Below the pieces are notes generated by a model. The model had not been told where the DNA came from. It worked only from the letters and a program-made list of their open reading frames with translations, and did no database searches. Shown here in pieces: positions 1-52,594 of a stretch of DNA of 64,000 nucleotides. Within the stretch, counting starts at the first letter, position 1. Each line of letters begins with the position of its first letter. Source of the DNA: Paraspadella gotoi (lineage: Eukaryota > Animalia > Chaetognatha); contig CM119265.1 of assembly GCA_051294375.1 (NCBI GenBank), positions 10,309,042 through 10,373,041 on the forward strand, written 5' to 3'. The position numbers and the translations under genes were made by a program.

Positions 1-223
1 CCTTTTCGATATGATGATCGATCTCATTCCTATGGAGCATCTGGAAGAATTCCACGAAAGATACGATCGTTGGTATGATGAAACACTGTTTAAACTAGAT
101 CGTGTCAAAGCCTTGAACCTGTCAGAGTCAAGTAAAGAACTTTTGTTACAGATTATGATGAATAAACGGAGGGAAGTGTTGAAGAAAATCATTCTCGATC
201 TGCGAGATAGAGCGGAGAAATAA
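1..223 (+). CDS. Array ORF C1, small helical orphan protein (5' end outside window)
   Basis: Frame is open from the window edge (..LFDMMIDLIPMEHLEEFHERY..) to TAA at 221-223. MIDLIPMEHLEEF resembles LLELVPVQFKEEF of the next ORF. Confidence 0.6.
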   Translation, partial: LFDMMIDLIPMEHLEEFHERYDRWYDETLFKLDRVKALNLSESSKELLLQIMMNKRREVLKKIILDLRDRAEK

Positions 224-264
224 ATATGGGAGTTAATTAAAAGAAACTCACATGTTGCAAATTT

Positions 265-321
265 ACTTACCTTTCAGTTTACTGATTTGTGTGCAAATTA
301 TTCAATATACTTACCTTTCAG
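265..321 (+). promoter_or_regulatory. Two copies of ACTTACCTTTCAG (anti-5'-splice-site motif fused to a 3' splice acceptor)
   Basis: Exact 13-mer at 265-277 and 309-321; the second ends 19 nt before the ATG at 341. The same or similar motif recurs before most ORFs of the array. Confidence 0.6.
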
Positions 322-340
322 CTTTGGTATATATTTCAAA

Positions 341-646
341 ATGCAAAGGGAACGCATTGAGATTGTCGGAGAACTTCATATGCGAATATTGCTGGAGCTC
401 GTTCCAGTCCAGTTTAAAGAAGAATTTGTGGTCGAATTTGGACCGTTGGAAGGAGCGTACAGAGAAGAAGCTCAACGACACAGCGGATCAGATGGCACAG
501 TACGCCCCACTGGGTCGCGTCCCCACAGTGTCATTGGAAAGTCTCGACACATTGAACGAGATGCCATCGAGGACATTTATGCAGTTATAAAGAGATTTCG
601 CTCGTCGTGCCCAACTACAGACCGAGTAGAAATAAACCTGTCGTGA
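341..646 (+). CDS. Array ORF C2, 101-aa orphan protein
   Basis: ATG at 341 in caaaATG context just downstream of a tttcag acceptor; MQRERIEIVGELHMRILLELVPVQFKEEF...; paralog-like to C1. Confidence 0.6.
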   Translation: MQRERIEIVGELHMRILLELVPVQFKEEFVVEFGPLEGAYREEAQRHSGSDGTVRPTGSRPHSVIGKSRHIERDAIEDIYAVIKRFRSSCPTTDRVEINLS

Positions 647-748
647 AAAGGAGATTAAAAAAATGAAAACATTGCTTCAAATCCTTATTAGATTGATTTT
701 CGGATTATTTGATTTCGACATTTATTTATTCTTGTTTATTCAGGAAAT

Positions 749-950
749 ATGACTTCATTTGACGGTTACATGTATGGCAAGTTTGGCATTTGCTACGATG
801 AAACTCATGGAGCGTCATTTTCAGATCCTGAGAGAGCAAGCGCGAACGATCCCAGATGTTGCTAAAAAGCAAGAAAATGGTTATTCGAATGCCTGTTCCA
901 GATAAAGGAAACAAAACTCAGTGCAAGGAGGCAGAGAAAACTCCAAATTG
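749..950 (+). pseudogene. Disrupted array ORF (X)
   Basis: ATG at 749 just after tttattcag; purine-rich coding-like composition but interrupted by a stop/frameshift; 3' end approximate. Confidence 0.35.
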
Positions 951-1035
951 ACAATTGCTCATTTATTATTATAGTTTTGCTTTCAGTTTGCAACTATTCG
1001 TTGAATAAATCTATTTTAAGAACTTGATTGGAAGT

Positions 1036-1368
1036 ATGTCAAACAGAATCGTCTGGTTGTGGGACGATTGGAGAAACCTGAAACGTCAGAAAGAAAGTGA
1101 AAATAGGAACAAGGAAATTATGGACGTAATTCTTCGAAGGCCGGAGGCTAATCTGTCTACAAACCTGATTGGGTAAGGGAGATTTTAGGTGAGAATAAAG
1201 GTCCGAGAGACGATGCCGAAAAAGCAATTGCCTCGCACGAGATTGGATGGAGACTGCAGAAATCCTGAGGAAAGAAAAGCCAAAAGAGCCAAGACCTTTG
1301 AAGCCATCAGTAAGATGATGCAGGAACGCATCGAGGAGCAGGAAAGCATCCTAAAAAACATTTCATGA
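1036..1368 (+). pseudogene. Array ORF A1 (family A), about 3 frameshifts
   Basis: Pieces in successive frames (MSNRIVWLWDDWRNLKRQKE / KPDWVRE..DDAEKAIA / ARDWMETAEILRKEKP / KTFEAISKMMQERIEEQESILKNIS*) align colinearly with A2 (EWEQLYKREKE / NPEWLKD..EAAQEDVRN / ARGWKKTASMLK / ETYNEINKLIDDYIKEREEEIRILS). Confidence 0.65.
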
Positions 1369-1468
1369 TTAAATAAATTTTCGTGAACTAATGCAAACAA
1401 ACTTCGGGAATATTGGTCAAATTGTTCAGATATATATTCTTATTTATTCACAGCTTTCTCAGATAATA

Positions 1469-1808
1469 ATGCAGAGCGGACTTCCGGCTTCATCAATCTA
1501 CTCCAGGGAGCATCTGGAACTTTGTGCATTACGAAAAGAAGACGGATGAGCTTGAAAGACGTCTCCCAGGTTCCGTTGAGAAATGCGTTGAACTATCGCA
1601 GAGTTATGCGTCAAAAATAAGGAACCTACGTGAAATCATTGCCAAGAGAAAGGCAAAGGACCCGGCGGCGAACGTGAAAGAGCTCGTCGAAAGATCCAGA
1701 CCTTCGAGAAGAATCTTGACTCTTGGGCGATGGAGGCGGATTTATCTCAGTCGAGGCTGTGTGTTCAGCCACGAAAGTTTGGAGTCTGTAAAGACAGAAT
1801 TCCTTTAA
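1469..1808 (+). pseudogene. Array ORF B1 (family B), frameshift near the 5' end
   Basis: ATG at 1469 after ttctcag. The main frame (ELERRLPGSVEKCVE...RRILTLGRWRRIYLSRGCVFSHESLE) is clearly homologous to B2 (ELNNEAPDCVERCFD...RRNILVERWKKIRLAQGRIFNRESVE). Confidence 0.65.
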
Positions 1809-1941
1809 AGGAAACAGTTGAATTTGTGGGATTTTCTGTAATGTGAATGAAAACTTTAGATTAATCAATTTATCGTCCTCAAACATGATTGTTTGGCTAA
1901 ATAAACATTTACCTTCACAGCTAATAATTACCTGGCTAAAG

Positions 1942-2286
1942 ATGTCCGATCCGGTGGGTGGAGCTCGTTATCTTCAGGAATGGGAGCAACTCTACAAGAG
2001 AGAGAAGGAAACAGGGAATAAACAGTCGGGAAGGAACCTGAATGTGAGGGAACAGGAAGCGAAAATCAGACGTAATCCGGAATGGCTGAAAGACAAACCT
2101 GAAGACTACAAATTGAAGTTGAAAGAAGCGGCTCAAGAAGACGTTCGCAACGCGCGAGGATGGAAGAAAACGGCCTCGATGCTAAAGATTCACCAAAAGG
2201 AAAAGATAGAGACTTACAATGAAATAAATAAATTAATTGATGATTATATCAAAGAAAGAGAGGAGGAAATTCGGATTCTGTCATAA
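1942..2286 (+). CDS. Array ORF A2 (family A), 114-aa charged helical protein
   Basis: ATG at 1942 downstream of catttaccttcacag (1906-1920); intact K/E/R-rich ORF; homologous to A1, A3, A4. Confidence 0.7.
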   Translation: MSDPVGGARYLQEWEQLYKREKETGNKQSGRNLNVREQEAKIRRNPEWLKDKPEDYKLKLKEAAQEDVRNARGWKKTASMLKIHQKEKIETYNEINKLIDDYIKEREEEIRILS

Positions 2287-2350
2287 ATATTTTAATTCTA
2301 TCTCACTTGCTTAATTATTCGTTCTTTACTTCAGTCATTTTCGGGATATA

Positions 2351-2671
2351 ATGCAAGGTCCCTGCGGATACCTGGCTCATTGTTACAAGGATTTTCGCGT
2401 CTTCGTCATAAGGCGAACTGAAGAGCTGAACAATGAAGCACCCGACTGTGTAGAGAGATGTTTCGATGTTATAAAGAATCATTCTCTGGAATTGAAACAA
2501 TTGCAGGAAGCTATTAAAGGACGAGAGGACGATGCAGGAGATCAATCACGAACGAATCAAGTTCCTGCAAGAAGAAATATTCTCGTCGAAAGATGGAAGA
2601 AGATCCGACTCGCCCAAGGACGCATCTTCAATCGAGAAAGTGTTGAGACACTGGTTGAGGAACTGCCATGA
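2351..2671 (+). CDS. Array ORF B2 (family B), 106 aa
   Basis: ATG after tttacttcag (2325-2334); carries the family-B motifs PDCVERCFD and RWKKIRLAQGRIF. Confidence 0.7.
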   Translation: MQGPCGYLAHCYKDFRVFVIRRTEELNNEAPDCVERCFDVIKNHSLELKQLQEAIKGREDDAGDQSRTNQVPARRNILVERWKKIRLAQGRIFNRESVETLVEELP

Positions 2672-2767
2672 AATAATAATTTAAACTTACCTTCAGAGAG
2701 GACCGATTCGTTTTCCTCGTTAATACCTGTTTAATTTGAATTCATTCAGCTCAGCTACTTACCTATA

Positions 2768-3121
2768 ATGGCTCAAGGAAAATCCATTGCTGAAATTCAA
2801 GAAGAGATCACGCGTGATTGGGAAAAAGCGAGGAATATTAACGACCAATATCTGAGAAACTCTATGGTCGAGAACATTGTGTTCCGGGAACATGAAATTC
2901 GAATTCGAAAGAAGAAAGAAGAAAGAGAGGAAAGGATGAAGATAAGCAAAGCCATTGAAGCCTCTGAATTGTACAAGGATATTAAAGAATTAGAGGATCG
3001 CCGAAAATTAGCAATGGATGCAAAGCGGAAGAGGCCAAACCTCAGCGACATCTACGATGAGATTGAGGACCGAGCGAGAAAGCTGCAGGACGAAGCAAAA
3101 GAACGATTAATGAAAATTTAA
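2768..3121 (+). CDS. Array ORF A3 (family A), 117 aa, coiled-coil-like
   Basis: Preceded by acttaccttcag (2685-2696) and acttacct (2757). Motifs RDW..., REHE and KRKRPNLSDIY match KDW..., RENA and KLKPENASIY in A4. Confidence 0.7.
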   Translation: MAQGKSIAEIQEEITRDWEKARNINDQYLRNSMVENIVFREHEIRIRKKKEEREERMKISKAIEASELYKDIKELEDRRKLAMDAKRKRPNLSDIYDEIEDRARKLQDEAKERLMKI

Positions 3122-3202
3122 AACTCTGCTCGAATTGGACACTCGTCAAGAATCAATTTAAATTATTATTTGATATTAATCCATTTGTCTTCAGATTACG
3201 AA

Positions 3203-3504
3203 ATGTCAGTCGATCATGAATTTAACAGACGAGAAATGCGACTTTATGCTAGCTATTTGATTCCAAGGTCCTTGGAGGGAGCTTTGGAAGATTTAAGAAA
3301 TTATGAAAAGGAGCTCATTCAAGAAGAAAGGGAGATCGAGAAGGGAATGGCTGGACAACCGACGAAAAGGAGCATAGAACTCCACAGAGGCAGAGCGGAA
3401 TACTTACGAGAGCACATGGGATGCTGAAAAAATGGCCGGACATCTTAGAGGAAGAGGGAAAAATATTCGCATGCAGAGATTACAGAATACCTTATTACTG
3501 TTAA
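3203..3504 (+). pseudogene. Array ORF B3 (family B), one frameshift near 3410-3427
   Basis: MSVDHEFNRREMRLYASYLIPRSLEGALED... then in a second frame LKKWPDILEEEGKIFACRDYRIPYYC* (stop 3502-3504), which supplies the family-B C-terminal W..I....G.IF motif. Confidence 0.65.
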
Positions 3505-3557
3505 TATTTTTATTCACTTACCTTTTTTAAATTCCAGTTCTCACTAGTTGCTTTGAA

Positions 3558-3821
3558 ATGTCAGAAGTGAGAAGGAATTTCAAGAAATATGCCAGGGAAA
3601 ACGCGTTATTCTGGTTGCCGACTAACCTTGAGGATGCGCTTGATGAAATCCAGAAAAGGGAAAATAACTTGGTCCAAAGGATTCAAGAGTACGGAATTCA
3701 CGGCGCGGACGAACGAGAATTTCAGACAATTGCACAACTTACCAGATGGGCGAAAATCCTGGAGGATCAGAGAGAGATTTTTTCATTGGGAACCAAAACT
3801 GTAATGAATTTGTATCTTTAA
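3558..3821 (+). CDS. Array ORF B4 (family B), 87 aa
   Basis: Preceded by acttacct (3516) and a ttccag acceptor (3537); motifs LPTNLEDALDE and RWAKILEDQREIFS. Confidence 0.7.
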   Translation: MSEVRRNFKKYARENALFWLPTNLEDALDEIQKRENNLVQRIQEYGIHGADEREFQTIAQLTRWAKILEDQREIFSLGTKTVMNLYL

Positions 3822-3889
3822 CTTACCCGTTCGCTTTTAAGCCGAAACAAATTGGCGTATTCAAATAATTTACTTACCTTCAGTGCAAA

Positions 3890-4213
3890 ATGGATTTTAA
3901 AGCCTTTAATAGAATTCGAGATCAACTAAACAAAGATTGGATTGAACTCGACAAGAAACCATGGGGCCAAGAAAAGACGAAATCCATCATCGACCTAACA
4001 ATAAGGGAAAACGCATTGTGGAGCCTGAGAGAAGAGGAAATCAGAAAGCAGACTCCACGGACAACGGCGGAAATCAGGAAAGAATTAAAGAAGTCGAACG
4101 ACACCATATGGCTGATCAGGGAGGCGTTCAAGTTAAAGCCCGAAAATGCAAGCATTTACCTCCGGTTCCTCGAAGCAGAAAAAGAAAAGACGAAGGGATT
4201 TGAAAACTCATGA
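3890..4213 (+). CDS. Array ORF A4 (family A), 107 aa
   Basis: acttaccttcag at 3872-3883 ends 6 nt before the ATG; intact ORF homologous to A2 and A3. Confidence 0.7.
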   Translation: MDFKAFNRIRDQLNKDWIELDKKPWGQEKTKSIIDLTIRENALWSLREEEIRKQTPRTTAEIRKELKKSNDTIWLIREAFKLKPENASIYLRFLEAEKEKTKGFENS

Positions 4214-4315
4214 TTGCTTTCTTGTATATTCATTTGGCCGGTGCAAAGCATTTATTGATCATTGGATTTAGCATTTCTTTGTCATTATTGTATTATTTGT
4301 TTTACTTACCAAAGC

Positions 4316-4666
4316 ATGTCCAAAGACATAGATTCCGATCATTGGATCCGTGGCCACAGTCAACTTACGTACGTCACGAAAATCCGGATGAAGCAAGAAG
4401 TCAGCCAAAGGATGCCGAACTCCGCGGAGGAGGCCTTTGAACAAGTCGGAATCAACTGGTCAGAGATGGCGAAAAGTGAAGTCGCTATCGAGGCCAAGAT
4501 AGCAGAAGATTCGCAAGCGGACATTGAAGCTGAAAGGAAAAGAATCAAATTCCTTGATGATGAAAATACAAACCTCATCCTTTGGGCAAAACTCAAGATG
4601 CAACGAGGGGATTTATTTGCTCAAAAGACTTTATGCGAGATTGCAGCGAAATCGCACGAGAATTGA
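4316..4666 (+). CDS. Array ORF B5 (family B), 116 aa
   Basis: tttacttaccaaag directly before the ATG at 4316; motifs MPNSAEEAFEQ and LWAKLKMQRGDLFA. Confidence 0.7.
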   Translation: MSKDIDSDHWIRGHSQLTYVTKIRMKQEVSQRMPNSAEEAFEQVGINWSEMAKSEVAIEAKIAEDSQADIEAERKRIKFLDDENTNLILWAKLKMQRGDLFAQKTLCEIAAKSHEN

Positions 4667-4921
4667 CATTTATTGTATATTGCTCATAATTCATTAACAT
4701 TGTTTCGTTGGGTCATTTCTCTGTTGAAGTTGTTGGTTAAATAATTAGTTATTCATTCTCAAACTTACCTTTCAACAGTGTGTCTTTCCAATAACAAGTT
4801 ACGATCGCGCTAAAAACATTTAATAAACTCGTAAACCTGATAAACTTTTCGAAATTCGAGAGTCGCGGCAAAGGAGACCAACTTGAAGCGCGTCAATTCC
4901 GAGGTGAAACACATTTACCTG

Positions 4922-4953
<32 letters not shown>

Positions 4954-4997
4954 ATTCATATGATAAACCATTTGAATAATATACTTACCTATACCAG

Positions 4998-6376
4998 ATG
5001 TTCAACTCCCGCGATATCATGTGGGGAAATGACGAACGCCTCAACCTTTCACTCGATGTCCCAGGGGAGGATTACGCTCCATCTTTCCGTCAACTCCCCT
5101 CCTCGACGCAGAAAACTGCGCGAATCCAGACGACGTCGCCGGTTTTAACCGAAGAGATCCGCTGAATCTCGGGACTCCGCCCAACCCCAATATCAACACC
5201 CCATCCCACACGACTATCCCACCTACCGTCAGCACGCCCCTTCCCTCTTTAATGGATCTTCCGGAGGTATTTAAATTGACTTTGTTTGGGATTATTGTTT
5301 ATTATTTATTTATACTCACCTGGTGACGTTTACAGTCAATTCTTCTTCAACGCCAACCGCTGAATTCGGCGCTCGAAGATTCCTCATCGAGCGACGGGAC
5401 CCTGGCCTACGAAATCCCGCCCACTCCCAAAACCCCGCCCACCTGCCGACGACTCTGTTCGGACCGCCAATCCGAAAACTCCGCCAATCCCGATGCGGAA
5501 CGGGAAAATCGACTCTGCCAAGTGCAACAACAATCTCAGCCTTCTCGCTTATAACAACGAGAAGATTCCCTTCATCATAGGAACGTCGGATGAATGGAAA
5601 TTCAGGCCAGACGTCCCACTCACCGGCAAGATCGGGAAGTGGATTAAAGCGTGTCGTCGTAACTGGCGTAGAGTCGCGAAAAAGAGAGAATCGATTTCGT
5701 GCCGCTTCGTTTTCGAGAATTCGGATTAATCGTTAATCCAGTGAAGAACAGGACGAGAGACTCCACTTCCCGCCCAATAACAATAAGAAGTCGGCCGCGA
5801 CCAAGCGAAACGTCGTCGTCAAGACTCCAACCTCATCAACTTCTTCATCGTCCGTCGTCGAAACGGCACCTTTGAAGGACCGCTGGCGTCGTCTTCGTTC
5901 ATCGACGCGCAGAGGAAACCACGTAGCGATGAAGTTCGTCGTCTTCTCGCTGAGAAGGAGGCACTGAAGCTCGAACGTGACAAGTATAGGGCTCGCGCGC
6001 CAAGTTCGAGGAGGATCTTGCGCAAGAAAGGAAGCTGCGCGAGAAAGAGCGGAATCGTTTCGAGGAGAAGTTGCAGAAACTCAGAGAAGATTTTGACAAG
6101 CGAACGGACCGCCTTACGGAAACTCACCTTCACGAGATTAAGAGCTGGCGGGAGGCTCTTTGTGCTCCGCGAAAATCGCCTAAGCCTCACTCACCGTCAA
6201 AGAACAAAGAGAAGCAGCGTGAGTCTCCCAAGATGCGTGTAAATAGTGAGCCTTTTAGAATCGCGGTCGCTCGTCCCCACTTACCCGATTTTGCCCCTCC
6301 TCCCCACCTCCAACACCTGACGAAGCCCCCCCGTCAGTCCCCACCCCCCCACAAAAAACATAAAGGTCATAAATAA
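4998..6376 (+). pseudogene. Larger orphan gene (Pro-rich N-terminus, coiled coil, basic/Pro-rich C-terminus) with several frameshifts and one probable intron (~5267-5337)
   Basis: atacttacctataccag|ATG at 4981-5000. GC-richer coding-like sequence in shifting frames (MFNSRDIMWGNDERL..; EVRRLLAEKEALKLERDKY..; EKLQKLREDFDKRTDRLTETHLHEIKSW..KKHKGHK*); an AT-rich gtattt...tttacag segment interrupts it. Confidence 0.45.
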
Positions 6377-7100
6377 TTCATTTACCTTATATACTTACCC
6401 TATTCCTTTTCATTATCTTCTCTTACGTCAGCCTAATTTGTATAATAGTTAATCAAATTCATTTCGACTGGCGTCAATAACAATTTCCTGTCATTTGTCC
6501 ATTCCCCACCCTTCCTTACTTACTACCCTGAATAAATATCTTGAATCCTCGATTACTCACGTCTAATGACAAGTTATTTCATTTAATAATTTAGTAACAC
6601 TTACCTGTCGTATACTAATTATTTAAACGTACCTACGGTTCTATATTATAATTATAACAATCTTGAATCAAAAATGTTCCATTAAAAAGTTATGATACTT
6701 ACTTGTGTCCCATGTTAGTAATATCGTTCAATGATACTTACCAAAGTGTAAATAATATTGCAGTGAAGAATTACTCACCTGTTCCCTTACTATGTAAAAT
6801 AAATTGGACAACGTAATAAAGATACAAGGTTATAATTTCTCAAGTGATGACGATAGTCGAGGAAAGATGCTAGATAATTCAAGTTTATTTACCCCTCACA
6901 AATGGGGGATAGAAAGATTCCTTTTTAAAGCTAAGATTCCCAAACTAAAACCGAATAAGTTCAAACAAGCCACAAAATTTGTGTGGAGATAAATAAATTC
7001 GATCGAGACTGCCAAGACGCGTTTCCATGTCCACTGAGTTGCTGAAAGACGGACGTTCCTGACTCGGTACCGGAAGGATCGACGGTGGGAGTGAATCGGC

Positions 7101-7330
7101 ATGGGATCCGCAGATGGACTCGCAGACGGGATCCGCAGATGGACTCGCAGACGGGACTCGCCGACAGGGATCCGCAGATGGATCTCGCAGACGGATCCGC
7201 AGATGGACTCGCAGACGGGACTCGCGGACGGGACTCGCGACGGGATCCGCAGATGGTGTTTGCAGATGGGATCTGCAGATGGGATCTACAGATGGGATCT
7301 ACAGATGGGACCGGAGACGGGATCCATCAA
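7101..7330. repeat. Minisatellite of 12-13-nt units (GGGATCCGCAGAT / GGACTCGCAGAC)
   Basis: Directly visible tandem units; they generate repetitive ORFs in all three plus frames. Confidence 0.9.
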
Positions 7331-8263
7331 CGGGTTCGCTTGCAGTCAGGATTGGGTTGGGAAATTGCAGCTGCAAAAGGGGGGGAGTATCGCAGCATCG
7401 CAGTATGGGAAATGCAGTGCCTTCTGGAACGGGGGGAGAGAGGAGAACGACGAACTTACCTGCAAGATGACGCAGTTTGAAATGACTTAGATGTGCCACT
7501 ATGTCTGCGCTTTCTTTAATTGGCAACCTTGACATATGAGTATTTACAATGTTCCCAAGGTGGGAGTGTAACAATAGGCGCTAGCATAGTGGTACGAGCG
7601 GAGCATGGGATGGAACCGATGATCATCTGTTTCCAAATAATTCCTTACTTTCGCCCTCTACCGTTCTTGGTTCCAGCTCATTCTCCGATGGAAGGCCGAA
7701 TCGTAAACTTCGAAATAATAATTTTCTATATTTCACAAAAATGTAAATATTTAATTAAATATTTATTATTACTATTATTTAAGAATTAATTAATAAATTA
7801 ATTCGTCCTTCCGTTCTAGGTTTGAACATTCCTTCTCATATTTTGGAATCCAACGAAAATGAACTCGTCTACTAAAATATACCGGATAGTTCTACATTAA
7901 GTGATTATATTTAGGTATTATTAGTTAAGAACTAGTTAATTTTACAGACTTCTTGTCCGAACGTTCGTCTCTACTTGATTGACTTCTAATGAGCGGGTTT
8001 CGAACGTAGATATACGAGAAAATCGTGAAAAAGTCAAAAAAAAAAAAACGCGAAATCAGTAAGGAAACAACCGAACTAGATGAGCGCGAAAAAAGAATTG
8101 AGGCTTTCGTATACCCGGATGAGGGAGGGAGCCGGCTTGGGATTTGCCGGCTCCCATTGGTCGAGGCCGGTTCACGTGACGGCTTCCCCTGGATTTTCTT
8201 TTTTTCATCTATCGATGTTATTTTGTTCGTTTTCTTACTTCTATAGTATGGTGATACGATCGT

Positions 8264-11200
8264 TTTATGAGGAAAACGCATATTATTTTTATTGTGAGCA
8301 ATATATTTCGGTTAACATCGCTAACCATGAGTTACTTTGCGAAGTAAATGCAAGAAAAAACAGACCACAAAAAAGTAAAAAAAATATTTTGGTTAAAAGA
8401 GAGAGAGAGAATAAGAGTGAAAAGAAATATGAGGTCAAAGTAAGGACAAAAGCTCAAGAGAAAGAAAGAGAAAGAACCCCCCCCATCTCAATAGTCTTTT
8501 AGTTTTTTGTAGAAGAGGATTCCATGCGTGTGTTTTTACATATTTAGAGAGGTCATCGTTGAGGCCTTTTTCCTCGGTTCTGTCCCTTGACGACGAATCT
8601 CCAGGCTCTCACGAATGTAACATAGGGCAACAATGCGAATTCAAGTTTTTTTCGGTTTTTGTTTGAAAAAGTTGCAAGGACCACAGGGTCTTCCCAGGCG
8701 ATTTCACACTTCGCAAGATTTTGCCATGTTTGCTGATCTCCCGGACATATTCTGGCTGTCGTGTGAAGATGCGGAGTTCTTCGATGTTGTGCTGTGCGCG
8801 GTTTTTATTGAGACGCTTGTTTTTCCAACGTAAGAAGAGGCGTTGTTGTTGGGTGGGGTTTGCGCAGTTACAAGAAGCTTATAAACCCCTTTTCTATCAA
8901 CCAAAGGTGGTTGTGTGTGTTGTTGGGTCACACAACAACAAATTGGCTAGTTGGGACCTGACTTAAAAAAAATGCGACAATCATGTTTTTTAAATGCATG
9001 TCTAAGTTTGTTACCAATAGATGGTATGTATGTTATGAGAAGCAGAAAGCTAGCGCTTTTTTCTAGGTTGTCCGTGTGTTGTGGTTGTGGTGGTTGAGAG
9101 GATGTTATCGATGGGTTGTGGATGTTATTTCGTGTATTTCTTTGCCAAGTGTTTGTGAGTTGGTTTGTGGTTTGGTGAGTTTGGTTGACGGACTGGGCAG
9201 AAATGACAGGATTGCTTTGGCGCAGCTCTGGTGGTGTTGTATTCAAGCGAGATCTGTTGTAATCTGTTCTCTTGGATAACCATTGTCTTCCCAGTTGTCA
9301 AGCAAGTTACAAAATTTCGTTTTCAAGGAAGAGATGGAGAGGAGCAAATTCGATTAAGCTCTGCAGAGAGCACCCTTAAATACCCTTTCCATAAACCAGG
9401 ATTTGTGCGCAAGAGGTGGGATTATAAAGTGAGACCAGTATTGGAACATTTTCGGGTAAACTGAAGTTGAAAGAGTCCATCTTCATTTCGAGAAAGAGAC
9501 AGTCTAAAAAAGCGAGTTTTTTTGTGTTCTTCCAGTTCAACAGTAAACTGGAACCCTGTGGTGAACTAAGTTTAGGCATTCCTTAGAAATTGGAGGTGGG
9601 CGTCATTCTGGTCATTTTGAGTTAAGATGCAAAAGTATCATCCATGTACGCAGTCAGGCCACCGCAGGTGTAGTAATGCCCCTTTCGTCTGCCTCTTGCT
9701 ACAGCTTTATTGACTGTGAAGGCCATCCCAAACTTGGGCGACTTCTACCATTAGACTGAGGACCCTATTGGGCCACTTTCCTCTGTAAGTATGGTGTCGG
9801 TCATCGTAGATGAACCCAGCACGAATGAAGGAAGGCAGAGTAGGCAGAAGGTCAATGTCTTCAGGAGAAAAGCTCTAGTGCGGGCGGCAAGGTTGGATCA
9901 TTTAATAAATGATTGTATAGTGTACCTCTATTGCCCTTCGGAAGTTGGAATCGAAGGAAATAAGGCATTTGCATCATAAGAAAGGAGAATTTCATTAGAA
10001 CTGACTTTTTCGTTTTAATTTTTGAAACAAACTCGACTGAATTTTTACAGAGTAAAGTTGACCTTTGAGGATGGGACGAATTAGTTTTTATAAGAAAAGA
10101 AGCCAGACCCTCCTGAGGGCAATCACGATGAGAAATTATGTTTCGTAGCAGGGAAACCGTTTGTTGGTTTATGGCTGCTTTTACCAGCGGGTAAGCAGAA
10201 GGTGGAGGACCGATCCAGAAGGGTATAATACGAACGAGTACTCTCAGGGGTTAACTTTTTTTCTTTTTTAAAGGTTAAGAGCTTTCGTTGGATTCGGCCT
10301 CTAAAGTTTTTGTATTGTCTTCAGTGTCTAGGGTGACATTTTGGAAGAGCGGAATAAGCCTTTTGCTTTAGGTCTTGTGGGTTAGAGGTGACTGAAACCA
10401 ACGCCTATTATCATGGGGGGTCACAGAGCGATCTTTTTCTTCTGAATCATTTTTCTCACATGTTGAAACCTTTTTGTTCATGAGATACGGTCAAGATTAG
10501 ATTGGTGGGCGCTGGGGTTATTAAGAGGAATTCGACGAAGGATCTTGGATAGCGTCGTGGCGAGTGCCTTTCCGGCCTCTATTGATAGCGACCTATGGTT
10601 GTGAAGTAGAAAAAGCAGGTTTTTTCTGTTGTCATGAATTATGTTTCATGAAGGGAATCATTTTTGGCACCATCAGCAAAACTTGGTCCTCTATTTCTTA
10701 AAACGGAGAGGGATGTGTTGGTGGAAGAGTGAGGATTCTTGAAGTTGAAGAACCGAGTCCTTTGTAGGTGGAATTTCACGAGGGAATTGGTGGTTTGTTG
10801 GGACCATATATAGAAGCTATTAAGATTTTTTTCCGAAAGTAAAAACTCGAATTTCGATTGTTAGTTTAAAGTTTTACTTTATTCTGAATTCACGTTCGCG
10901 ATGGTTTTTATATAGATATTTCATTTATTTGTAACAAATCTGGAGGAGAACACATTTTGGTATGTTAGTTTAATGTTCGTTAATTTTATTTTTAGGAGGA
11001 ACAGAATTCCTTTTATAGTTTTTTGACACAAATTGCTTTAGCATCTCATTTTGATATTTCGATGGATATACTTTTTAGCGCAGTGGAGTTTAATTGGACA
11101 TTTCGAGCGAAGAAATTTGGGTACAATAGAGGTGGAAAGGACATCTTTTGGAGAAAAATTAGTCGATTTTGTAGGCGAAGAAGCACAAGGTTTAGGTAGA

Positions 11201-11550
11201 TAAAAGGTTTTAGAGATTGATAGAGATATTTGTGAACTCCCTGCCCCATAAAGGGCACATATGTGGATTGGCTTGATGAGATCATCGTATAATGCGGTCA
11301 TGAGTACATATATTGGCTGATTAACATCGGTCTTTATGAGGAAAACGCATATTATTTATGTTATTTGAGCAATATATTTCGGTTAACATCAGCTTGAACC
11401 ATAGTTGCATTTGCGAAGTAAACTGCAAGAAAAACAGACACAAAAAGTAAAAAATATTTTGGTGTTAAAAGAGAGAGAGAGAATAAGAGTGAAAAGAAAT
11501 ATGAGGTCTCAAAGTTAAGGACAAAAGCTGCAAAGAGAAAGGAAAGAGAA
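8264..11550 (-). mobile_element. Penelope-like retroelement (RT + GIY-YIG endonuclease), heavily frameshifted, with ~210-bp direct terminal repeats (pLTRs)
   Basis: Minus-strand RT motifs EILLSYDANALFPSIP (~9945-9995) and YMDDTF (~9630-9650), linker YIPSIGNKLRHAFKKHDCRIFFKSGPN, GIY-YIG motif KGVYKL...YVGKT (8704-8931). Direct repeats at ~8264-8472 and ~11333-11550. Confidence 0.85.
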
Positions 11551-11639
11551 CATGGCAGCGATCTATCGACTAGCGCGAACAAAAGGCCAAAGAATTGGTG
11601 TTGATTCCCGTTGGGGGGCGAGGCGGACCGATATCAGAA

Positions 11640-11910
11640 TTAAAACATTTTTTTTTATTTTTTTAAATTTTTAGTAGCATTAGGTACATTGACGTCTTAA
11701 ACATATAAAAAAAATATTTTAGAACTAAAATTGATAAATCATCGTTAATTAAGCATTGTTTGAAGATGCATGGTTCATCGTTTTATTTCCAATTTTCCCA
11801 AATTATTCCAAATTTGACTTCAACCGCTTGTGTTCATGATGCTGAAAATTAAGGTAAACTAATATTTTTGTGGTAATAAATATGTTTTTGTTGAAGAATA
11901 AACGTCTATA
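11640..11910 (+). repeat. Dispersed repeat, second copy at ~50020-50290
   Basis: tttttagtagcat..ggt.cattgacgtcttaaacat.taaaaaa...ttttagaactaaaattga... is shared by the two sites. Confidence 0.75.
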
Positions 11911-11913
11911 CAA

Positions 11914-12041
11914 CTGAGAGAAGGAGCAGGGCGTTTACCTGGAGGTCTTTTTAGAAAATCAGGCAGTGTGTATGAGATGGGGAGAGAGAGTAAGGAGCAG
12001 GGCGTTAACCTGGAGGTCTTTTTAGAAAATCAGGCAGTGTG
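11914..12041. repeat. Two tandem copies of a ~50-bp unit
   Basis: aaggagcagggcgtt(t/a)acctggaggtctttttagaaaatcaggcagtgtg occurs twice. Confidence 0.8.
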
Positions 12042-12432
12042 CTGGATGGAACAATGTTTTTTTGGTGCCTTTATATATGTGTGTTTTAGTTATTTAGTGT
12101 TTTAGTTATTTAGTGTTTTAGTTATTATTTTCTGTACTATTATAAAGAAATATACATGATTCTATTTTTTTTAAAAATGCGACCCCAAGGGGCCGCAGGA
12201 TAAAAATGAATACATCAACTTGTAGCGGGGACACTTTCCCAGATATATCACCATAAATTTTTTTTTTAAAAATAAAGTTACTATGCGAAAAATTTGATTA
12301 CTTCCAAAATTGTTCCGAATTACCCCGCACTACCCTAAATAAAAGTAAATATAATGTAATTAATGATACTGTTCCCCAAACAATATAAGCAAAATATTTT
12401 TTGTACACCTTAATCATTAAGACGGAACATGG

Positions 12433-12980
12433 TAGGAGTTCTGTCATATAAATAATGTTAAAGCATCCCTGTGGGATAACGAAATTTAAAAAAAAATTAA
12501 GATTTTATGTATAGTTAATAACATAGAAGCATTTAAAGTTTATCGTATTACTATAAATCATAAAAATTTTATATTTCAAATTCAGAATTTTCAAAAACGG
12601 ATTCGGGTAGAGCTTGCAAAAATAAATAAAAAATATTATTACAAGAATTCTAAATTTTTATGTTTTATTGGTTAAAATTAGCAAAAACTTTAAAAATTAT
12701 GGTATGATGATGATGATTTTAAAGGGTTTTTCCTTTATTTGACCTACTTATCATCGAAATATTGAAAAACGCATTATACTTTGTGTAGACAACTTTTTGT
12801 GGGCTATCTGAATCCCTTCTTAAAAAATAAGATTTTTACAAAAAAATGTTTTCATTGCCTATGCATTTATAAATATTTAAATACTTCAATATTATACTAT
12901 GCCTCACTAGTTATAAAAGTGATAGTAAATATTGATTAAGTATATGATGGACAAATGAATTTTATATGACAGAACTTCTA
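12433..12980. mobile_element. MITE-like element with ~20-bp TIRs
   Basis: taggagttctgtcatataaa (12433) and tttatatgacagaacttcta (12961-12980) are inverted copies; AT-rich non-coding interior. Confidence 0.6.
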
Positions 12981-16100: not shown

Positions 16101-19100
16101 AAAGTGAATTAAAGAGTCGGAATCTGCTGATAAGCAGATCCGACTAAAAAAAAAAAATTTAATTTACCAGATTTTTTTATATTCAACTCTGCAGTAGAAG
16201 AATACTTCATTTAAAAAAATCATTGCTCTTAAACCGATAACCCAATTTTAATAAAATTTATGCCAAACTTATCATCTTTTAATAAACTTTAAATCACTTT
16301 TAATTTTTTTTTTAAATTTAAGTAAATAAAGGTATTTTTAAAATCTGAAATAAAGTGGCGCGTTTTTGTTTTTTTTTTTGCACACGACTGTATTATTTTA
16401 AAAACAAATGATATCCAAGCAAGAAGAAAAGGAGAAACGACTTTCGACGACGTGCCTTGTCAGACTTTTGATCATTTGCGCTGTGGCATCTGACGAAGAA
16501 GACAGGATCGTAATCGGGCACAGGTGCCAGCATTTTCATCCCCAACTGGATGCTCTTGCCCTCGGAGCTGACGAAGACTTCGGGTTCGGAAGGCGGAAGA
16601 CGCGAAATCTCGTCCAGGTATTTTTTGATCAACTCGCGGGAGATTCGATCTGCGCGTTAAAACCAATCGTCAAAATTAGACGGCGCGCAGTGTTAGGCAC
16701 TTGTAAAGGCCCATATGAATACACTCAGACCTTTTCAAAACTTCTCTAACCTTTATTTAGATTTAACGTACTTTATTATACATAAAAAGTTTTTCAAAAA
16801 TTTCATAAGACCTGGGGGCTTTTTGGCCATTTCTAACTCACCCTGCAAAGTCGGAAACTCTGGAGGGTCCTTCGGGTCGGCGGCGCGACGTTTGACAAGA
16901 CGAAGGAGTTCCTCTACCAGATCAGAGGGAAATCCGTGCGGGAGGGACTCGTGCACGCGGGTCTCCACCTCTCGGGCATACAAACCGTGCACCTCTGTAA
17001 CGATCTACGAGAGGGCGACATTAACATTTGACAATATTGGAATAATTATTAATTACACGGATTTCAAATGGGAGTGAAATGAAAGGATCAATTACTGTGG
17101 CTAAATTATTTGTTATAGCAACTTCAGATTTTTCACCCTGGTAAAAAAATCGCTGACGTTTTTTATTTTTTAACTCCCAGTAGTCCAGCTTGCCTTAACT
17201 TTCTTAGTTATGTGCTCATCAATGGCATGGGTCGAATTTCAAAAAAGCAAATTTTTTGCATTTGAATAGGACCTTCCTGTTATAAGATACAGTAACTTTT
17301 TCTTTACTCGATAAACTGGAGGGAGCGGATATCTCCCAAACTAGGAGTTGTAATCAGCTCAGCTGTTAGTAATGGATGCAGGAAGGTTAGTTTGTGTCCC
17401 CATTGGACGGATTTTTAAAAATTCAAAAAAATTGCGCTCAGCACCCTAAAAAATTTTTTTACAATATTTGCTCTAGCGCAGTTATTAATGAAGCTTGCCC
17501 TATCATTTTTTGCTCATAAATACCCTAGACGAGACCTACATAATGATGTAATAAAATTTTGAATTAATTTTATTTTTTTGGTTTTAATAATTAATTTAGT
17601 CAAAATAATATTTAAAAGTATTCTGAAAATATCCAAGGTAATTGATTCCTTTTTTATACAAAATGATACATTGAACAAGAGCAGTTTTAATAAGTAAAAA
17701 ATAAAATTTTAAAAAATTATTTTAAATACCAAAAATATTTTTTCAATATTATAAAATATATTATAGTCTTAAAACTAATTAAAATATTTAAAAACTATAA
17801 AGGGTTTGAAAGCGGACATCATGCTGATTCCAAATCTGTTTTTGTTTTTAAATTTGATTTTTTTGTTCTTGTTTACAGTCTCATACATTTGTAAAAATTA
17901 AGAAAATCGTCTCTTTTTCAAAACCTTATAAAAAATGATTGGGTCCATGTATTGGAAAAAAAATTTAAAGTTAACTTTAAAAATGTAATATCTACTTGCT
18001 ATCAAAATTTTAAGTGAGAAGAATAAGATTTGCCAAAGATATCAAGGGAAGAAGTGTCATTATTTATATTTTTTAGAAAAAAAGATAAGATTTTTTTAAT
18101 AGCCAATTGAAGCATTCTCTCATGGCCCAAGCGGCTGAGGCAGAGGTTCTTCTCAGACGAGGGTTTAGTAAGGACTTAAATTTTCTGCAATATTGAGGAC
18201 AACCTTCACAACTTTTTGAGTTCACCTATCTTTTTCTTACTTTTCTTACCTTCTTATCTTGCACAACCAAAGTCAGAGTTCTATATGCAGAAATAATGAG
18301 TAGACCTTTCCATGCATTGAAAAGTTTTTAAATCAAAAAAAACGATATGGTAAAGGTACCCATACATCATATGAATTTTTTGAAATTTTTTTCAAAAGAT
18401 TTTTACAGTAAATGCTGCCAACTCTGAAAAAAAAAAAATAAAATACTAAAAAATTGACTTTTTGATAAATATCTTTTAAAGCTTTTATTGCTACAGGGTC
18501 GAAACCCAATCTATCTTGTAGTAGGGGAGGAGTTTACGTTTTCTTGAATCGAGGAACTTTTCATGGAGATTTTCGTTAAAATCTGACTACAAATAATGTC
18601 AACGCTCCTGGGAAAAATTCAGGTAAAAATAGATGTAAAAACACTCGATTCCGTCTGTGCATCTGAGGGCTCGCATTTTTTTTCTCTTGACAAATAACCA
18701 TCATTTTGACATCAAACTATCAGATTCAAATGGACTGTCTGCTGGAAAATATTTCGACGCAATTTTTATATATAAAATAAAGGGATTTTCAACTCAATAC
18801 AATGTCAACGCATTTAACATATTTGTAATTTTACAATAAACTTCAAATTCAGGAATCGATAGCCATATGTCTGAGGGCCTCAAAATTTTTTCTTTACATT
18901 TATATGTTTTTGATATGATACGATCATGGGAAAGTGAATTAGTCATTTTGGTGAAATTTTATTTAAAGTAAAAGAAAGAGAGCTAACGATCGAATTCTAA
19001 GAGTTTTCAACCGGGAGTCAGATTCGGGAAAATCTTCTTATGGGCGAAATCTTCCAAAGAAGGTGGATTTCCGAAGATTTGGTTAAATTTTCTATATTTT

Positions 19101-22100
19101 ATGGTAGGATTTTTTGAAACTTATATTAACAATATTGCCATCATTCTACCTTGGCGTATAGAATATATTAAAAAAACCTCTGGCTTTTGTTCGTCAGAGC
19201 TTGTCCTAAGTAGGGGTAGTCTGCACTTTTATTAAATCTTAAAAGCATAAGGATCGTCGCAATTGCATAAAGAGAGAGAGAGAGAGAGAAATCGTTTCGG
19301 ACGAATCACGAAGAGAGCGCGTTCAAAAACTTTTTGGGCAGTTAGGGGTTTTTACTTTTTCCTCAAATTAATCTTTAGTTTCTTTAATCTTTAGTGACGT
19401 CGAATCGTCTTACGGCGCCTCAAGAACGGTAGTGAAGGTTTCAGTAACTAGACAACTCAAATAAACAAATATTGACGACGCCGTAAGCAGCGCTCGTACG
19501 ACTATGCAGTGCAATACAACTATTCAGTAACGTTATGACTATTCTTTACAGAGAGAGAGAAGGAGACATGAAAAATATTTGTTTGTTTTTTTTGTTTTAG
19601 TCGAATCTGCTTATCAGCAGATCCCGACTCTATAATTCACTTTGTCGGTCCGTCGGTCCGCCCCCTCAATATTGTCGGCACTATACTTATTATCATGTCA
19701 GAACATCGAATTATGATAAATTATGCAAAAAATAGCCGTCCGTCCGTCCGTCCATCCTTAGCTAGCAAAAACCCCAATTACTCGTGATTGGATGGATGGA
19801 TTTGAATGGAATTTTGTGTGTGGGTAGGGAAGTGTGTGATTGAGGCTAGATATAAAGTATCGATGGAATCGTCCTAGTGGAAATGAGTTTAAATGGAAAA
19901 AACAAAAAATATAATTCACTATTTGAACACCAATTGCTCATGAGTGGATTGGGCGATTGACCTGGAATTTTGTATGTGAGTAGAAAAGTGTGTGATTGAA
20001 CAGGAATGGATGGAATCTTTTGAGTGGAAATGAGTTTAAATGGAAAAAAACAAAAAAACCTGTTTCGCATCAATCATTTGGTTTATCATTACATAAATCA
20101 TTTGGTTATCATCGCACAATTTATTGTTATAACGCATCAATATTTGGTTATCATCGCATCAATATTTGGTTATCATCGCGTCAATAATTGGTTATCATCG
20201 CATCAATAATCAATTCCTACTACATCAATAAATTACTATTACATCAATAATTCGTTAATCGCATCAATTATTCTTCCCGGATGTTTCATTAATTTTCTTT
20301 AATAGCTAGCTGGCTCGATCAATACTACTTTTAAGATTTTTAAAAAAAATTTTTATATAAAAAAGAAAAATTGACAAAAGTGATTAAATTATTAACAAGT
20401 TTGAGCAAACGATATTAGAAATGTACTATTTTTTATTTACTCTAAGAAAAGTGCATTCTGTGGCGGTATATCCACACCGCCTCACGTCCGCCAAATCCAT
20501 TGGCTCAGAGGGGGAACACACCATCCCAGGCGTAGTGTTCCATCCACAGTCCTAACGACTTCCCTCTGCGTTGGCAAAGCGAGACCGTCCTAGGGTAACC
20601 GCGCCAGTGACTGGAGGCGTCACTGAGGGTCGGAAGCCCCCAAAGCCAACAGTGAGATGCCCCATCCCAATGGGCATCACAGGCAACCCGGCTGTTGCCA
20701 TAATTCCCCTTTTCTTTTTAACGTAGTTCAAACGTATTAAATAAAAATAATTATTAAGGTAAGTAATTTTTTTTTTAAATTTAAAAGTTTTTAACCTATA
20801 GTCTTTTTTTTAAATTCTTTTAGCAAAACAAAGGAAATTATCTCTCTATTCAATTGAGCATAATTTTTTTTTAAATCTTTCACAAACATTGTTAAAAATA
20901 TCATTTTTTAAAAAGATTATCAAAAATAGCCTAAAACAATAGGTTTAAAAAAAATTAATTTGTTAAAAAATTATTTATAATGCGAGGTATGTAACATAGT
21001 CAATTTTTTCCGCTCTACAAGATAGATTGGGTTTCGTCCCTGTAGTAATAAATCTTTAAAAGATATTTATGAAAAAGTAAATTTTTTTACCTTTTTTTCA
21101 TTTTTTTCAGAGTTGGCCGCATTTACTGTAAGTTTTTTTTTGAAAACAAATGTTCAAAAAATTCATATGATATATGGGCACCTTTTACACAAACGTTTTT
21201 TGATTTAAAAACTTTTCATATATGGAAAGGTCTACTCTTTATGTCTGCATTAGAACGCTGACTTTGGTTGTGCAATGTTAGTAAGAAAAAGATAGGTGAA
21301 CTCAAAATGTTGTGAGGTTGTCCTCAATATTGCAAAATATTTAAGTCCTTACTAAATCCTAGTCTTTGAAGAACCTCTGCCTCAGCCGCTTGGGCCATGA
21401 GAGAATGCTTCAATTGCCTATTAAAAAAAATCTTATTCTTTTTTTCATAAAAAATATAAATAATGACACTTCTTTCCTTGATATCTTTGGCAAATCTTAT
21501 TCTTCTCACTTAAAATTTTGATAGCAAGTAGATATTACATTTTTAAAGTTAACTTTAAATTTTTTTTCCAATACATGGACCCAATCATTTTTTATAAGGT
21601 TTTGAAAAAGAGACGATTTTCTTAATTTTTACAAATGTATGAGACTGTAAAACAAGAACAAAAAATCAAATTTTAAAAACAAAAACAGATTTGGAATCAG
21701 CATGATGTCCGCTTTCAAACCCTTTATAGTTTTTAAATATTTTAATTAGTTTTAAGACTATAATATATTTTTATAATATTGAAAAAATATTTTTGGTATT
21801 TAAAATAATTTTTTAAAATTTTATTTTTTACTTATTAAAACTGCTCTTGTTCAATGTATCATTTTGTATAAAAAAGGAATCAATTACCTTGGATATTTTC
21901 AGAATACTTTTAAATATTATTTTGACTAAATTAATTATTAAAACCAAAAAAATAAAATTAATTCAAAAATTTTATTACATCATTATGTAGGTCTCGTCTA
22001 GGAGTATTTATGAGCAAAAAATGATAGGGCAAGCTTCATTAATAACTGCGCTAGAGCAAATATTGTAAAAAAATTTTTTAGGGTGCTGAGCGCAATTTTT

Positions 22101-23507
22101 TTGAATTTTTAAAAATCCGTCCAATGGGGACACAAACTAACCTTCCTGCATCCATTACTAACAGCTGAGCTGATTACAACTCCTAGTTTGGGAGATATCC
22201 GCTCCCTCCAGTTTATCGAGTAAAGAAAAAAGTTACTGTATATTTTTATGAAAAGAAATGAAATGTTTGAAAATTTCGGGTCATCTTACAAATATAGACA
22301 TTGGGGTATGTGTCTGAGCACAACCATAATGACAGCCATTTTAAAGGTTTTCTAGTTAAAACTTATAGAAAATAACAATTTTATCTTTTAAAAAAAATTG
22401 GAAAACAAGCCTGTTGCCTATCTAGTATTTAAACCTTGAAATATATTAATAAGAATTTTTTACATGCTCCCAAAACATTATACAAACTAATAAATGTAAA
22501 AGAAATTAAAATTTTTGTCTCAATTTTTTCACAATGAGTTTAAAATAGAACTATCAAATAAGACGGGAGAAATGTCGCAAAAAAAGCTGCTGGAAGGCAA
22601 ACGCACCAGTTGTTATGATGTAATGTATTAGCAATTTGATTATAAGAACATAAACGTCAGGGAATTATCTAACTAATGAAATGAACAAATATTAATCAGA
22701 TTCAGTAAGTTAAGAGTTATAACAATTGTTTTCATTTCACTCCCATTTGAAAATCGGTGTACTGCAATCGTTGGTCTCGAATTTATAGCTGGACGGATCA
22801 AACTTCTCCCCCACCCCCCGGCCTTCCGCACTGCCTTCCTACTCTTAAACCTGGAACAACATCTTCCTGAGCTTCTTGAGGCCCGACTTAAATGTCTCCG
22901 TCGACTCATCGTCGATGGTCGCCAACTTCTTGGCGAAAAAACAGGCGAGGAATCGGCTCTCCTCGTCTAGACGCGCGTTGCCACAGATTTTGAGAGACGT
23001 CAGAAATGGGAAGGACTTCAAAAAATCCATCTGGCGATAAATTTCAAAATAAAGAATGCCACTAACTCAATAGGGCGTGTTAAATTTTGCTCACTAACTA
23101 TTCGTTGATAACTTGACCTAGCTCAGCTTTGACTGTTATCTAAGCAATCAGCCTCTAACGTGAACCTTTTTGAAATGTACCAAGGATGTTACGAAAAAAA
23201 TGAAAGAGACCCTCGAATTCAAAAGAGAATAAGAATTCGAGAAGAGTCTCGGACGAACCGATTGAAGGTCGTTGTCGGAAACGTCGAGATGCTTGAGAGT
23301 CTCGAGTCGGGCGACTGAGGGTAAATCGTCGAGATCATTCTTGGAGACGTCGAGTGACTCCAGGCAAGTGAAGGACCCGAGATGCTCCAGCAAATCAGGG
23401 CGCTCCTTGATGAGACCCTCCGAAAAGTCGAGTCGCTGAACTTTCTCAAAGGAGACGCCTTTGACTAGAGAGTTCAAGAACTCTCTTGTAGAAGAGGAAG
23501 AAGACAT
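13110..23507 (-). CDS. LRWD1: Leucine-rich repeat and WD40 protein (LRWD1/ORCA-like), at least 8 exons, 3' end not in window
   Basis: LRR exons 23259-23507 (LESLDVSKNDLDDLPSVARLETLKHLDVSDNDL) and 22851-23030. Linker exons ~16840-17004 and ~16450-16650 (PVFFVRCHSANDQKSD, like human PLHFLQCHSKNNSPQD). WD40 exons in 13110-13985 (LATCGGNYVCLIDCEAGKVVLKYK, TAGFRGSIRLL, SEDKTILLW). GT-AG boundaries join in frame where I checked them. Confidence 0.85.
14129..16390. mobile_element. Tc1/mariner-type non-autonomous element (CAGTC termini, TA target duplication) carrying a nested HINE-like insertion
   Basis: ta|cagtcccgtgcaaaaaaaaacgcgccactttatt ... aataaagtggcgcgttttt..tgcacacgactg|ta. Confidence 0.75.
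14803..16146 (+). mobile_element. Helentron-associated non-autonomous element (HINE/DINE-1-like)
   Basis: 5' end acaagtttgagcaaac with sub-terminal gtcggatctgc (14822) inverted against gcagatccgac (~16134-16144); 3' hairpin agtcggaatctgc-tgataa-gcagatccgact then an A-run; (GGAC)n tract; internal 17-bp tandem repeat at ~15448-15640. Confidence 0.7.
19598..20270 (-). mobile_element. HINE-like element, reverse-orientation copy of the 14803-16146 family, with a ~21-bp tandem repeat (~20065-20270)
   Basis: tagtcgaatctgcttatcagcagatcccgact hairpin, (GTCC)n tract and body match the reverse complement of ~15650-16146. Confidence 0.7.
20499..20699. repeat. GC-rich structured ~200-bp interspersed repeat, copy 1
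   Basis: Closely similar to 43068-43268; contains several hairpins. Confidence 0.8.
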
Positions 23508-52326: not shown

Positions 52327-52594
52327 GGTGAGGTAAGGAAGAGGAGCGACGAAAGTCATTGATTCATTTGGCCGAGTCGAATACTTAACCCGAATTTCAG
52401 CTACAAAAATAAACAAGGTGATGGTAAATGTATTCTCGAAAATTAGAAATTTTTAAGCATTGCCACAGGCAAAATTATATTATCACAGGAACGTTGCGAA
52501 AAAAAAAACATTCGCATTACGGAGTCGAGCAAAAAAAAAAAACGCTGTTCATTTGTCCATCTTACGTCATAGCACTAACATATTTAACACGAAT

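Follow-up and report, generated by a model that had tools for sequence, protein, structure and literature searches.

A candidate operon-like array of small paralogous genes with a recurrent splice-donor complement in the chaetognath Paraspadella gotoi

In nematode operons, Ur elements direct SL2 trans-splicing (PMC7668243, 10.1101/642082), and intercistronic distances of 74–213 bp are given for T. spiralis (PMC7668243). Rich sets of extra genes are also described in retroelements. Tandem arrays beside the 3′ long terminal repeat (LTR) are common in Retand elements (PMC11963269); the Terminons of bdelloid rotifers, which are giant Penelope-like elements, and the planarian Burro elements carry many accessory open reading frames (ORFs), some of them coiled-coil (PMC6431247); and Cer1, with its CERV gene, shares with complex retroviruses a spliced, non-enzymatic accessory gene within an LTR element (PMC10309623). 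We describe a locus of the chaetognath Paraspadella gotoi that resembles each of these systems in part. It occupies about the first 7500 nucleotides (nt) of a 64,000-nt stretch of DNA (positions 10,309,042 to 10,373,041 of contig CM119265.1, assembly GCA_051294375.1), which we call the window and number from its first letter on the forward (plus) strand. The array holds about 13 small ORFs and one larger gene, all on the plus strand, and its non-coding bases are rich in the motif ACTTACC, the reverse complement of a canonical 5′ splice site. The array is a real and unusual feature. We tentatively explain it, with a probability of roughly 40% for the explanation as a whole, as the operon-like accessory array of an LTR-type element, in which the genes would be separated by spliced-leader (SL) trans-splicing and the motif would act as a guide for the donor.

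The eleven small ORFs listed in full all have a purine at position −3 of the start codon, as compared with 48 of 80 other ATGs in the set examined. Seven are open: 341–646 (101 codons; its acceptor at 321 is fused to the motif), 1942–2286 (family B, 114 codons), 2351–2671 (family A, 106 codons), 2768–3121 (family B, 117 codons), 3558–3821 (family C, 87 codons), 3890–4213 (107 codons, similar to the ORF at 2768) and 4316–4666 (family A, 116 codons). The remaining four are interrupted: 749–958 (end approximate, 38 codons open; acceptor at 743, no motif), 1036–1368 (46 codons open, weakly similar to the ORF at 2768; weak acceptor, no motif), 1469–1810 (family A, interrupted near its start, 26 codons open) and 3203–3502 (family C, end approximate, 74 codons open). 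The window edge cuts a further ORF, whose 3′ part at 1–223 weakly resembles the ORF at 341. Downstream of them, the large gene (4998–6376, roughly 430 codons by eye) encodes Pro/Ser-rich, charged helical and basic parts; its coding sequence in the window is split between several frames. A preliminary description, made from the sequence alone, had presented the array as intronless ORFs of about 90–120 codons. This stands for the seven open ORFs (87–117 codons) and fails for the four interrupted ones, and the large gene has a GT–AG intron (5267–5335) that is spliced in RNA and contains an ACTCACC variant of the motif, the A of which lies 17 nt before the AG.

Several of the ORFs are related to one another. 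Those at 1469 and 2351 are clear paralogs (E value 2e-11). Weaker paralogy joins the ORF at 4316 to family A, 2768 to 3890, 3203 to 3558 and the edge ORF to 341 (none of 300 shuffles reached the respective score; 91 pairs were tested), and 1942 to 2768 by a BLAST E value of 7e-5 only. This paralogy suggests that the array likely grew by tandem duplication.

The substitutions that separate the window from an RNA run (X1, described below) support the small ORFs as real co-oriented genes under purifying selection. In the five ORFs open in the window, 12 of 15 substitutions are synonymous (neutral share 0.25, P 1e-5; 40 of 146 substitution rows form the basis of this count, 15 of them within the five ORFs), as are 8 of 10 in near-identical contigs alone. 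For example, 7 of the 8 listed substitutions are synonymous in the ORF at 3558, and all 3 are in the ORF at 4316. Gap letters equal or outnumber substitutions in most contigs of the array and of the neighbouring repeat (28 to 17, 13 to 3 and 53 to 6); there are none in the listed host exons or in 3734–4745. This excess suggests that most of the frame breaks stem from errors in an unpolished assembly and not from decay, and assembly indel errors probably account for the interruptions of the four small ORFs and the large gene.

The array proteins had no detectable relatives in the searches run. Pfam gave nothing at its cut-off for 17 array pieces (best E value 0.014) and no match for 7 further pieces, which included parts of the large gene and a probable ORF near 6792; most ORFs were compared with Pfam alone. 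A search of 5.8 billion proteins, with the ORF at 1942 and the region 5364–5726 as its only queries, returned no homologue, and neither did a search for family A in viral and metagenome contigs. For two proteins the ESM Atlas held no match, and a viral fold search gave nothing under an E value of 4. The AlphaFold models were poor, with a predicted local distance difference test (pLDDT) score of 54 for the ORF at 1469, predicted at low confidence to be all-helical, and of 48 for the other. A family A profile run against 1.84 billion representatives had 4 matches; the two inspected were long repeat proteins aligned over about 25 positions and were rejected. Across the window, Rfam gave nothing at its gathering score (two chance-level matches, E values 3.8 and 4.9), and a tRNA search found none. 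Furthermore, a search of the open-licence literature found no title or opening of an abstract that describes an element, or a combination of features, like this array.

ACTTACC occurs 16 times on the plus strand of 1–7500 (from 265 to 7460), where 0.2–1.2 copies are expected under Markov models of orders 0 to 3, and never on the opposite strand. The recount agrees exactly with the 16 positions of the preliminary description and confirms the absence of GGTAAGT. The whole window has 19 copies, so that only 3 fall in the 56.5 kb outside 1–7500. The excess is a non-coding one: 13 copies lie in 1899 nt of non-coding bases (0.18 ± 0.44 expected; none of 1000 dinucleotide shuffles gets to 13), and 10 of the 12 exact copies in 1–6376 lie within 1407 spacer bases. 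Measured against the 5′ end of U1, 17 sites in 1–7500 match at 9 or more of 11 positions, compared with 7 elsewhere on the plus strand and 7 on the entire minus strand. Among the 21 one-mismatch variants, scanned in 1–7000, clear enrichment was seen for two only, ATTTACC (5 versus 0.54 expected) and ACTCACC (5 versus 0.27); at position 1907, X1 has the exact motif and the window the ATTTACC variant. Read on the minus strand, the set is an ordinary canonical donor family (in 1–7000, GGTAAGT 15 times, GGTAAAT 5 times and GGTGAGT 5 times). Double-motif scans of viral contigs returned 13 loci, but an excess on one strand comparable to that of the array was seen at none of them.

The motif is coupled to splice acceptors. 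A YAG is the first AG within 22 nt downstream of 9 of the 13 spacer or intron copies (background 0.24, P 6e-4), most copies lie 7–11 nt from the AG, and four are fused to the acceptor in the form ACTTACCT(T)TCAG, as first described. The short, AT-rich spacers of that description were likewise recovered: those between the small ORFs measure 55–131 nt at a guanine-plus-cytosine (GC) content of 0.24–0.33, with an exception of 331 nt ahead of the large gene. It had also been claimed that each ATG follows an AG acceptor with no matching donor. None of the 12 spacers has a GTRAG donor, an absence that by itself is not significant, and the claim weakens at the ORFs at 1036 and 4316, the acceptors of which are poor. 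Within the spacers, the branch form CTAAC is absent (0 versus 1.8 expected) and CTTAC is abundant (18 versus 2.3).

RNA run X1 holds 0.73 of the sampled words, and one of its contigs joins four CT..AC introns of a neighbouring minus-strand host gene and is identical to the window in all three pieces listed. Because these host introns are spliced, we judge X1 to be RNA of the same organism, although no run listed as containing the sampled words is registered as RNA; the array is absent from runs X2 and X3. The X1 data are assembled contigs from one study that carry no strand, cap or level information, and a single contig does not prove a single transcript. A 4230-nt contig spans 1–3753 unskipped and unspliced (17 substitutions, 28 gap letters) and continues beyond the window start for about 460 nt. 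A second contig spans 3734–4745, and coverage is low at 4681–4994. Another contig starts at 4995, where the acceptor of the large gene is predicted (4997), with 5 unaligned letters. Six joints were found in 1–7000. One is the GT..AG intron of the large gene on the plus strand; the other five have non-canonical ends or undefined intervening sequence, and apparently derive from divergent contigs whose matches to several units keep the order of the array. Such divergent collinear contigs, one of which has 38 differences in 198 nt, point to related copies of the array in X1. Related copies elsewhere in the same organism fit the selfish array that had been proposed earlier.

The right end of the array suggests a retroelement terminus. 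An AT-rich trailer (6377–7090) with five motifs in 6377–6792 and, by eye, what is probably another broken small ORF starting near 6792 precedes a tandem repeat (7103–7325, 17.5 copies of a 13-nt unit), further purine tracts, a G-rich purine tract that is a candidate polypurine tract (7557–7566) and a candidate 3′ LTR (7567–8263), all on the plus strand. The candidate LTR begins TGTAACA, is multi-copy in X1 and appears truncated at its right by a separate insertion. A polypurine tract directly before a TG-starting 3′ LTR is the typical layout, and a terminus of this kind would here be oriented like the ORFs. The summed depth of contigs increases from 52 in 7009–7592 to 392 in 7593–8176, a jump that indicates a multi-copy unit. 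We put the chance that 7567–8263 is an LTR at about even and consider it probable that the array belongs to a mobile element of some kind.

In the explanation that we propose, the roughly 13 small paralogous genes and the single intron-containing gene likely form the 3′ part of a multi-copy LTR-type retroelement, whose gag, pol and 5′ LTR would sit beyond position 1. We infer that a single plus-strand RNA is made from one promoter upstream of the window and is likely split into single messenger RNAs by trans-splicing of a host spliced leader at the acceptor ahead of each ATG. ACTTACC is predicted to pair with the 5′ splice site of the incoming leader, replacing U1, and the spacers lacking the motif would be trans-spliced by default, as spacers without a donor. 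The proteins might be accessory factors, for instance in anti-silencing or RNA handling, which is a guess from context. That splicing takes place is suggested by what precedes the ATGs, namely an AG like that of an acceptor, a pyrimidine tract and a favourable start context, together with the lack of a donor in the spacers. We favour SL trans-splicing at these acceptors over cis-splicing, and hold it to be moderately probable, because the acceptors would be treated independently and the spacing of neighbouring host genes (see below) is operon-like. The coupling to acceptors and the precedent of the Ur elements also favour a guide that works on the sense strand. Support for the earlier reading comes, too, from the continuous coverage of ten spacers in X1, the plus-strand splicing of the large gene and the lack of minus-strand joints among those found in the array.

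Several observations weigh against this explanation. No spliced leader was seen, although in contigs only, and the 6 loose ends listed, out of 23, all fall away from acceptors. The contig over 1–3753 is unbroken at ten acceptors, and part of the small-ORF sequence in X1 may be genomic DNA. Poly(A) signals (AATAAA or ATTAAA within 40 nt of the stop) are found in 3 of 12 spacers. Any of the three motif forms is carried by 7 of the 12 spacers and is absent from 5, the distance from motif to acceptor is variable, none of the five trailer copies precedes a YAG, and further copies are found in the cis-spliced intron, the 3′ trailer and coding sequence. Furthermore, a single GGUAAGU donor would form a mismatch with each of the five ACTCACC variants, and the variants as a group follow the general consensus of donors, not the sequence of a single fixed one; there are no wobble-type variants with a change in the donor GT (0 versus 0.67 expected, not significant). 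Motif copies lie within 100 nt of 2 of 9 host 5′ acceptors picked by eye, compared with 33 of 573 background windows (5.8%), again not significant. At the candidate LTR, 8 similar purine-plus-TGT sites exist within the window, which contains no second LTR copy, gag, pol or primer site.

The comparison with Ur elements cuts both ways. The array shares with nematode SL2 operons the short AT-rich intercistronic spacers that end in an acceptor and a motif compatible with TAYYTT, and the resemblance to Ur that the preliminary description had drawn holds for TACCTT, which is enriched (8 versus 1.1 expected) and mostly lies within 22 nt of an AG. It does not hold for TAYYTT overall (14 versus 11.0 expected, no enrichment). 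Lasda et al. are said to have placed, in 2010, a stem-loop just 5′ of the Ur motif; in the array, a stem-loop (z below −2) precedes 2 of 17 motif copies, and no regular stem-loop is seen. In contrast to Ur, the array motif is a full 7–10-nt complement of the donor consensus and lies mostly 7–21 nt from the AG, where Ur lies about 50. The genes also differ, being paralogous orphans in a multi-copy unit and not housekeeping genes. The array would thus operate in the manner of a nematode operon, yet two of the Ur features examined are lacking, and its motif should not be called a Ur element.

Resemblance to the giant multi-ORF retroelements and to Cer1, rather than membership in any of these groups, is what the comparisons show. 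Retand elements have the same pairing of extra ORFs with a tandem repeat array adjoining the 3′ LTR, but they belong to plants and have a single extra ORF or a few, for the most part antisense (PMC11963269), whereas the array has about 13 short sense ORFs, each with an acceptor, and no gag-pol in the window. With the Terminons and Burro it shares its wealth of ORFs, but it lacks a 3′ hammerhead ribozyme, telomeric repeats and enzymatic accessory domains, and its short ORFs are separate where Burro has a polyprotein. No hammerhead matched in 1–12500, and no telomeric repeat was found at the 3′ end; Helitron and hammerhead ends, sought by pattern or eye, were not found either. A Terminon would have a co-oriented reverse transcriptase (RT), whereas the RT-like remnant beside the array lies on the other strand and has direct repeats of its own. 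This remnant (8264–11550) is a broken retroelement with RT-like (YMDD) and GIY-YIG-like motifs by eye, flanked by direct repeats (8264–8472 and 11333–11550) that are 89% identical. It is presumably Penelope-like, a label given by eye; ten of its fragments gave no relevant Pfam match. As for Cer1, the array shows no similarity to it in the searches run, has far more ORFs and carries an anti-donor motif that the excerpt of PMC10309623 used here does not describe. Two further observations concern the candidate LTR itself. A deep contig (depth 421) lacks 247 nt at 7639–7887 and has 22 other letters instead, which suggests a second subfamily, and the region 8129–8190, a possible promoter, shows by eye a GC-rich hairpin of 8 bp and, after it, boxes that resemble CCAAT and CACGTG.

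A close rival to the guide model, in our estimate an unlikely one, gives the motif an antisense role. The copies would be strong 5′ splice sites on the minus strand, where antisense read-through RNA would bind U1 and be spliced, retained or destroyed, limiting double-stranded RNA and silencing of the PIWI-interacting RNA (piRNA) type. Acceptor-per-gene processing would be unchanged, and the nearness of the motif to acceptors would have no other cause than the fit of its complement to a branch site plus pyrimidine tract. The variant spectrum suits this reading, since the enriched variants are common donors and those that break the donor GT are not enriched (1 versus 1.9 expected in 1–7000); the A at donor position −2 also agrees in 14 of 18 non-coding copies (P 0.001). 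The patchy distribution, the intron, trailer and coding copies and the donor-like variants favour antisense U1 sites too, and transcription of most host genes nearby runs toward the array, on the minus strand. Against it stand the significant YAG coupling and the joints themselves. Use of the motif as donors of a minus-strand transcript, which the preliminary description had raised, should leave CT..AC joints, and 0 of the 6 in 1–7000 are of this type, at a low depth at which rare RNA would be missed, although X1 does show minus-strand introns of a host gene. No such strategy was found described in the literature search, and we infer the silencing rationale. A 30-nt A run (4922–4951) that directly follows a motif variant (region from 4913) gives, when read on the minus strand, a pyrimidine tract and an acceptor that a donor follows without an intervening exon; it may be either an integrated poly(A) tail or a minus-strand acceptor directly followed by a donor.

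The guide model has a bolder form, which we regard as quite unlikely: an LTR element with a 13-gene operon for its own accessory proteins and with U1-mimic guides in its RNA, by which 5′ splice sites would be captured in trans, either that of the host SL or those of capped host first exons, in a spliceosomal version of cap-snatching. Capture of host first exons is conceivable because the guides match the whole donor consensus.

We give a similarly low probability to cis-splicing from a single exon of the element, and one slightly lower to the retrovirus-style model built on it. There, one 5′ leader exon would be joined to many acceptors, yielding nested subgenomic messenger RNAs that end in the 3′ LTR, and the motif would pair with the major donor of the element to select or suppress splicing. 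The anatomy of the candidate 3′ LTR and the scarcity of spacer poly(A) signals agree with such a model, and the unbroken RNA over the spacers and the foreign letters at 4997 fit it equally well. The accessory CERV protein of Cer1 is, moreover, made by cis-splicing (PMC10309623). However, a dozen strong acceptors over 5 kb would be expected to demand extensive skipping, the window contains no donor exon, and the spacing of host genes is operon-like.

This last observation comes from the far side of the window. Host genes beyond the array are mostly on the minus strand (Pfam domains UTP15, TMEM43, RING, C2H2, LRR and WD40), and between 50500 and 63700 a gene with Gly/His repeats and a Cys-rich part, UTP15, TMEM43 and a DUF2358 gene follow one another, co-oriented on that strand, with gaps of 73, 88 and 194 nt. 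Candidate operons have been defined by gaps under 250 bp (PMC12460157), and the spacing of these host genes is operon-like. The nearest UTP15 relatives are 53–64% identical. In two host 5′ acceptor regions, at 52423 and 63684 on the minus strand, the motif stands on the sense strand of the gene, 29 and 83 nt before the AG. A fragment of a Tc1/mariner-type DDE_3 transposase (55737–56252, minus strand, E value 2e-14) lies within a UTP15 intron, and large fold-back elements with long inverted arms that are 85–100% complementary occupy 17297–22230 and 46308–47673, the latter apparently in an intron of a plus-strand gene for a Lys-rich protein that, by eye, is histone H1-like.

CTTAC and CTCAC are compatible with a loose animal branch consensus. 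The least probable reading, in which the host owns a tandem cluster of rapidly evolving, lineage-specific genes (organized as an operon or under separate short promoters) with an unusual branch-site signal and an unrelated repeat in place of the LTR, draws on that fit, on the intron copy at branch distance, on the lack of a mobility gene among the Pfam-searched pieces and on a synonymous bias that would also suit alleles of host genes. Against it, copies that have diverged but remain collinear are expressed, the motif is missing from most host introns and spacers, and most copies lie only 7–11 nt from the AG; the absence of CTAAC where CTTAC abounds also lowers the likelihood of a pure branch-site role.

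If the proposed trans-splicing is true, P. gotoi would harbour a mobile element that expresses a dozen genes as an operon, and its spacers would provide a natural series with and without a perfect donor complement. The model would also make a role reversal testable, in which the pre-mRNA instead of U1 pairs with the splice site of the leader, possibly outside the nematodes. If the motif acts in antisense, it would represent a route to evade RNA silencing. Either way, the array encodes protein families that are under selection and lack detectable relatives.

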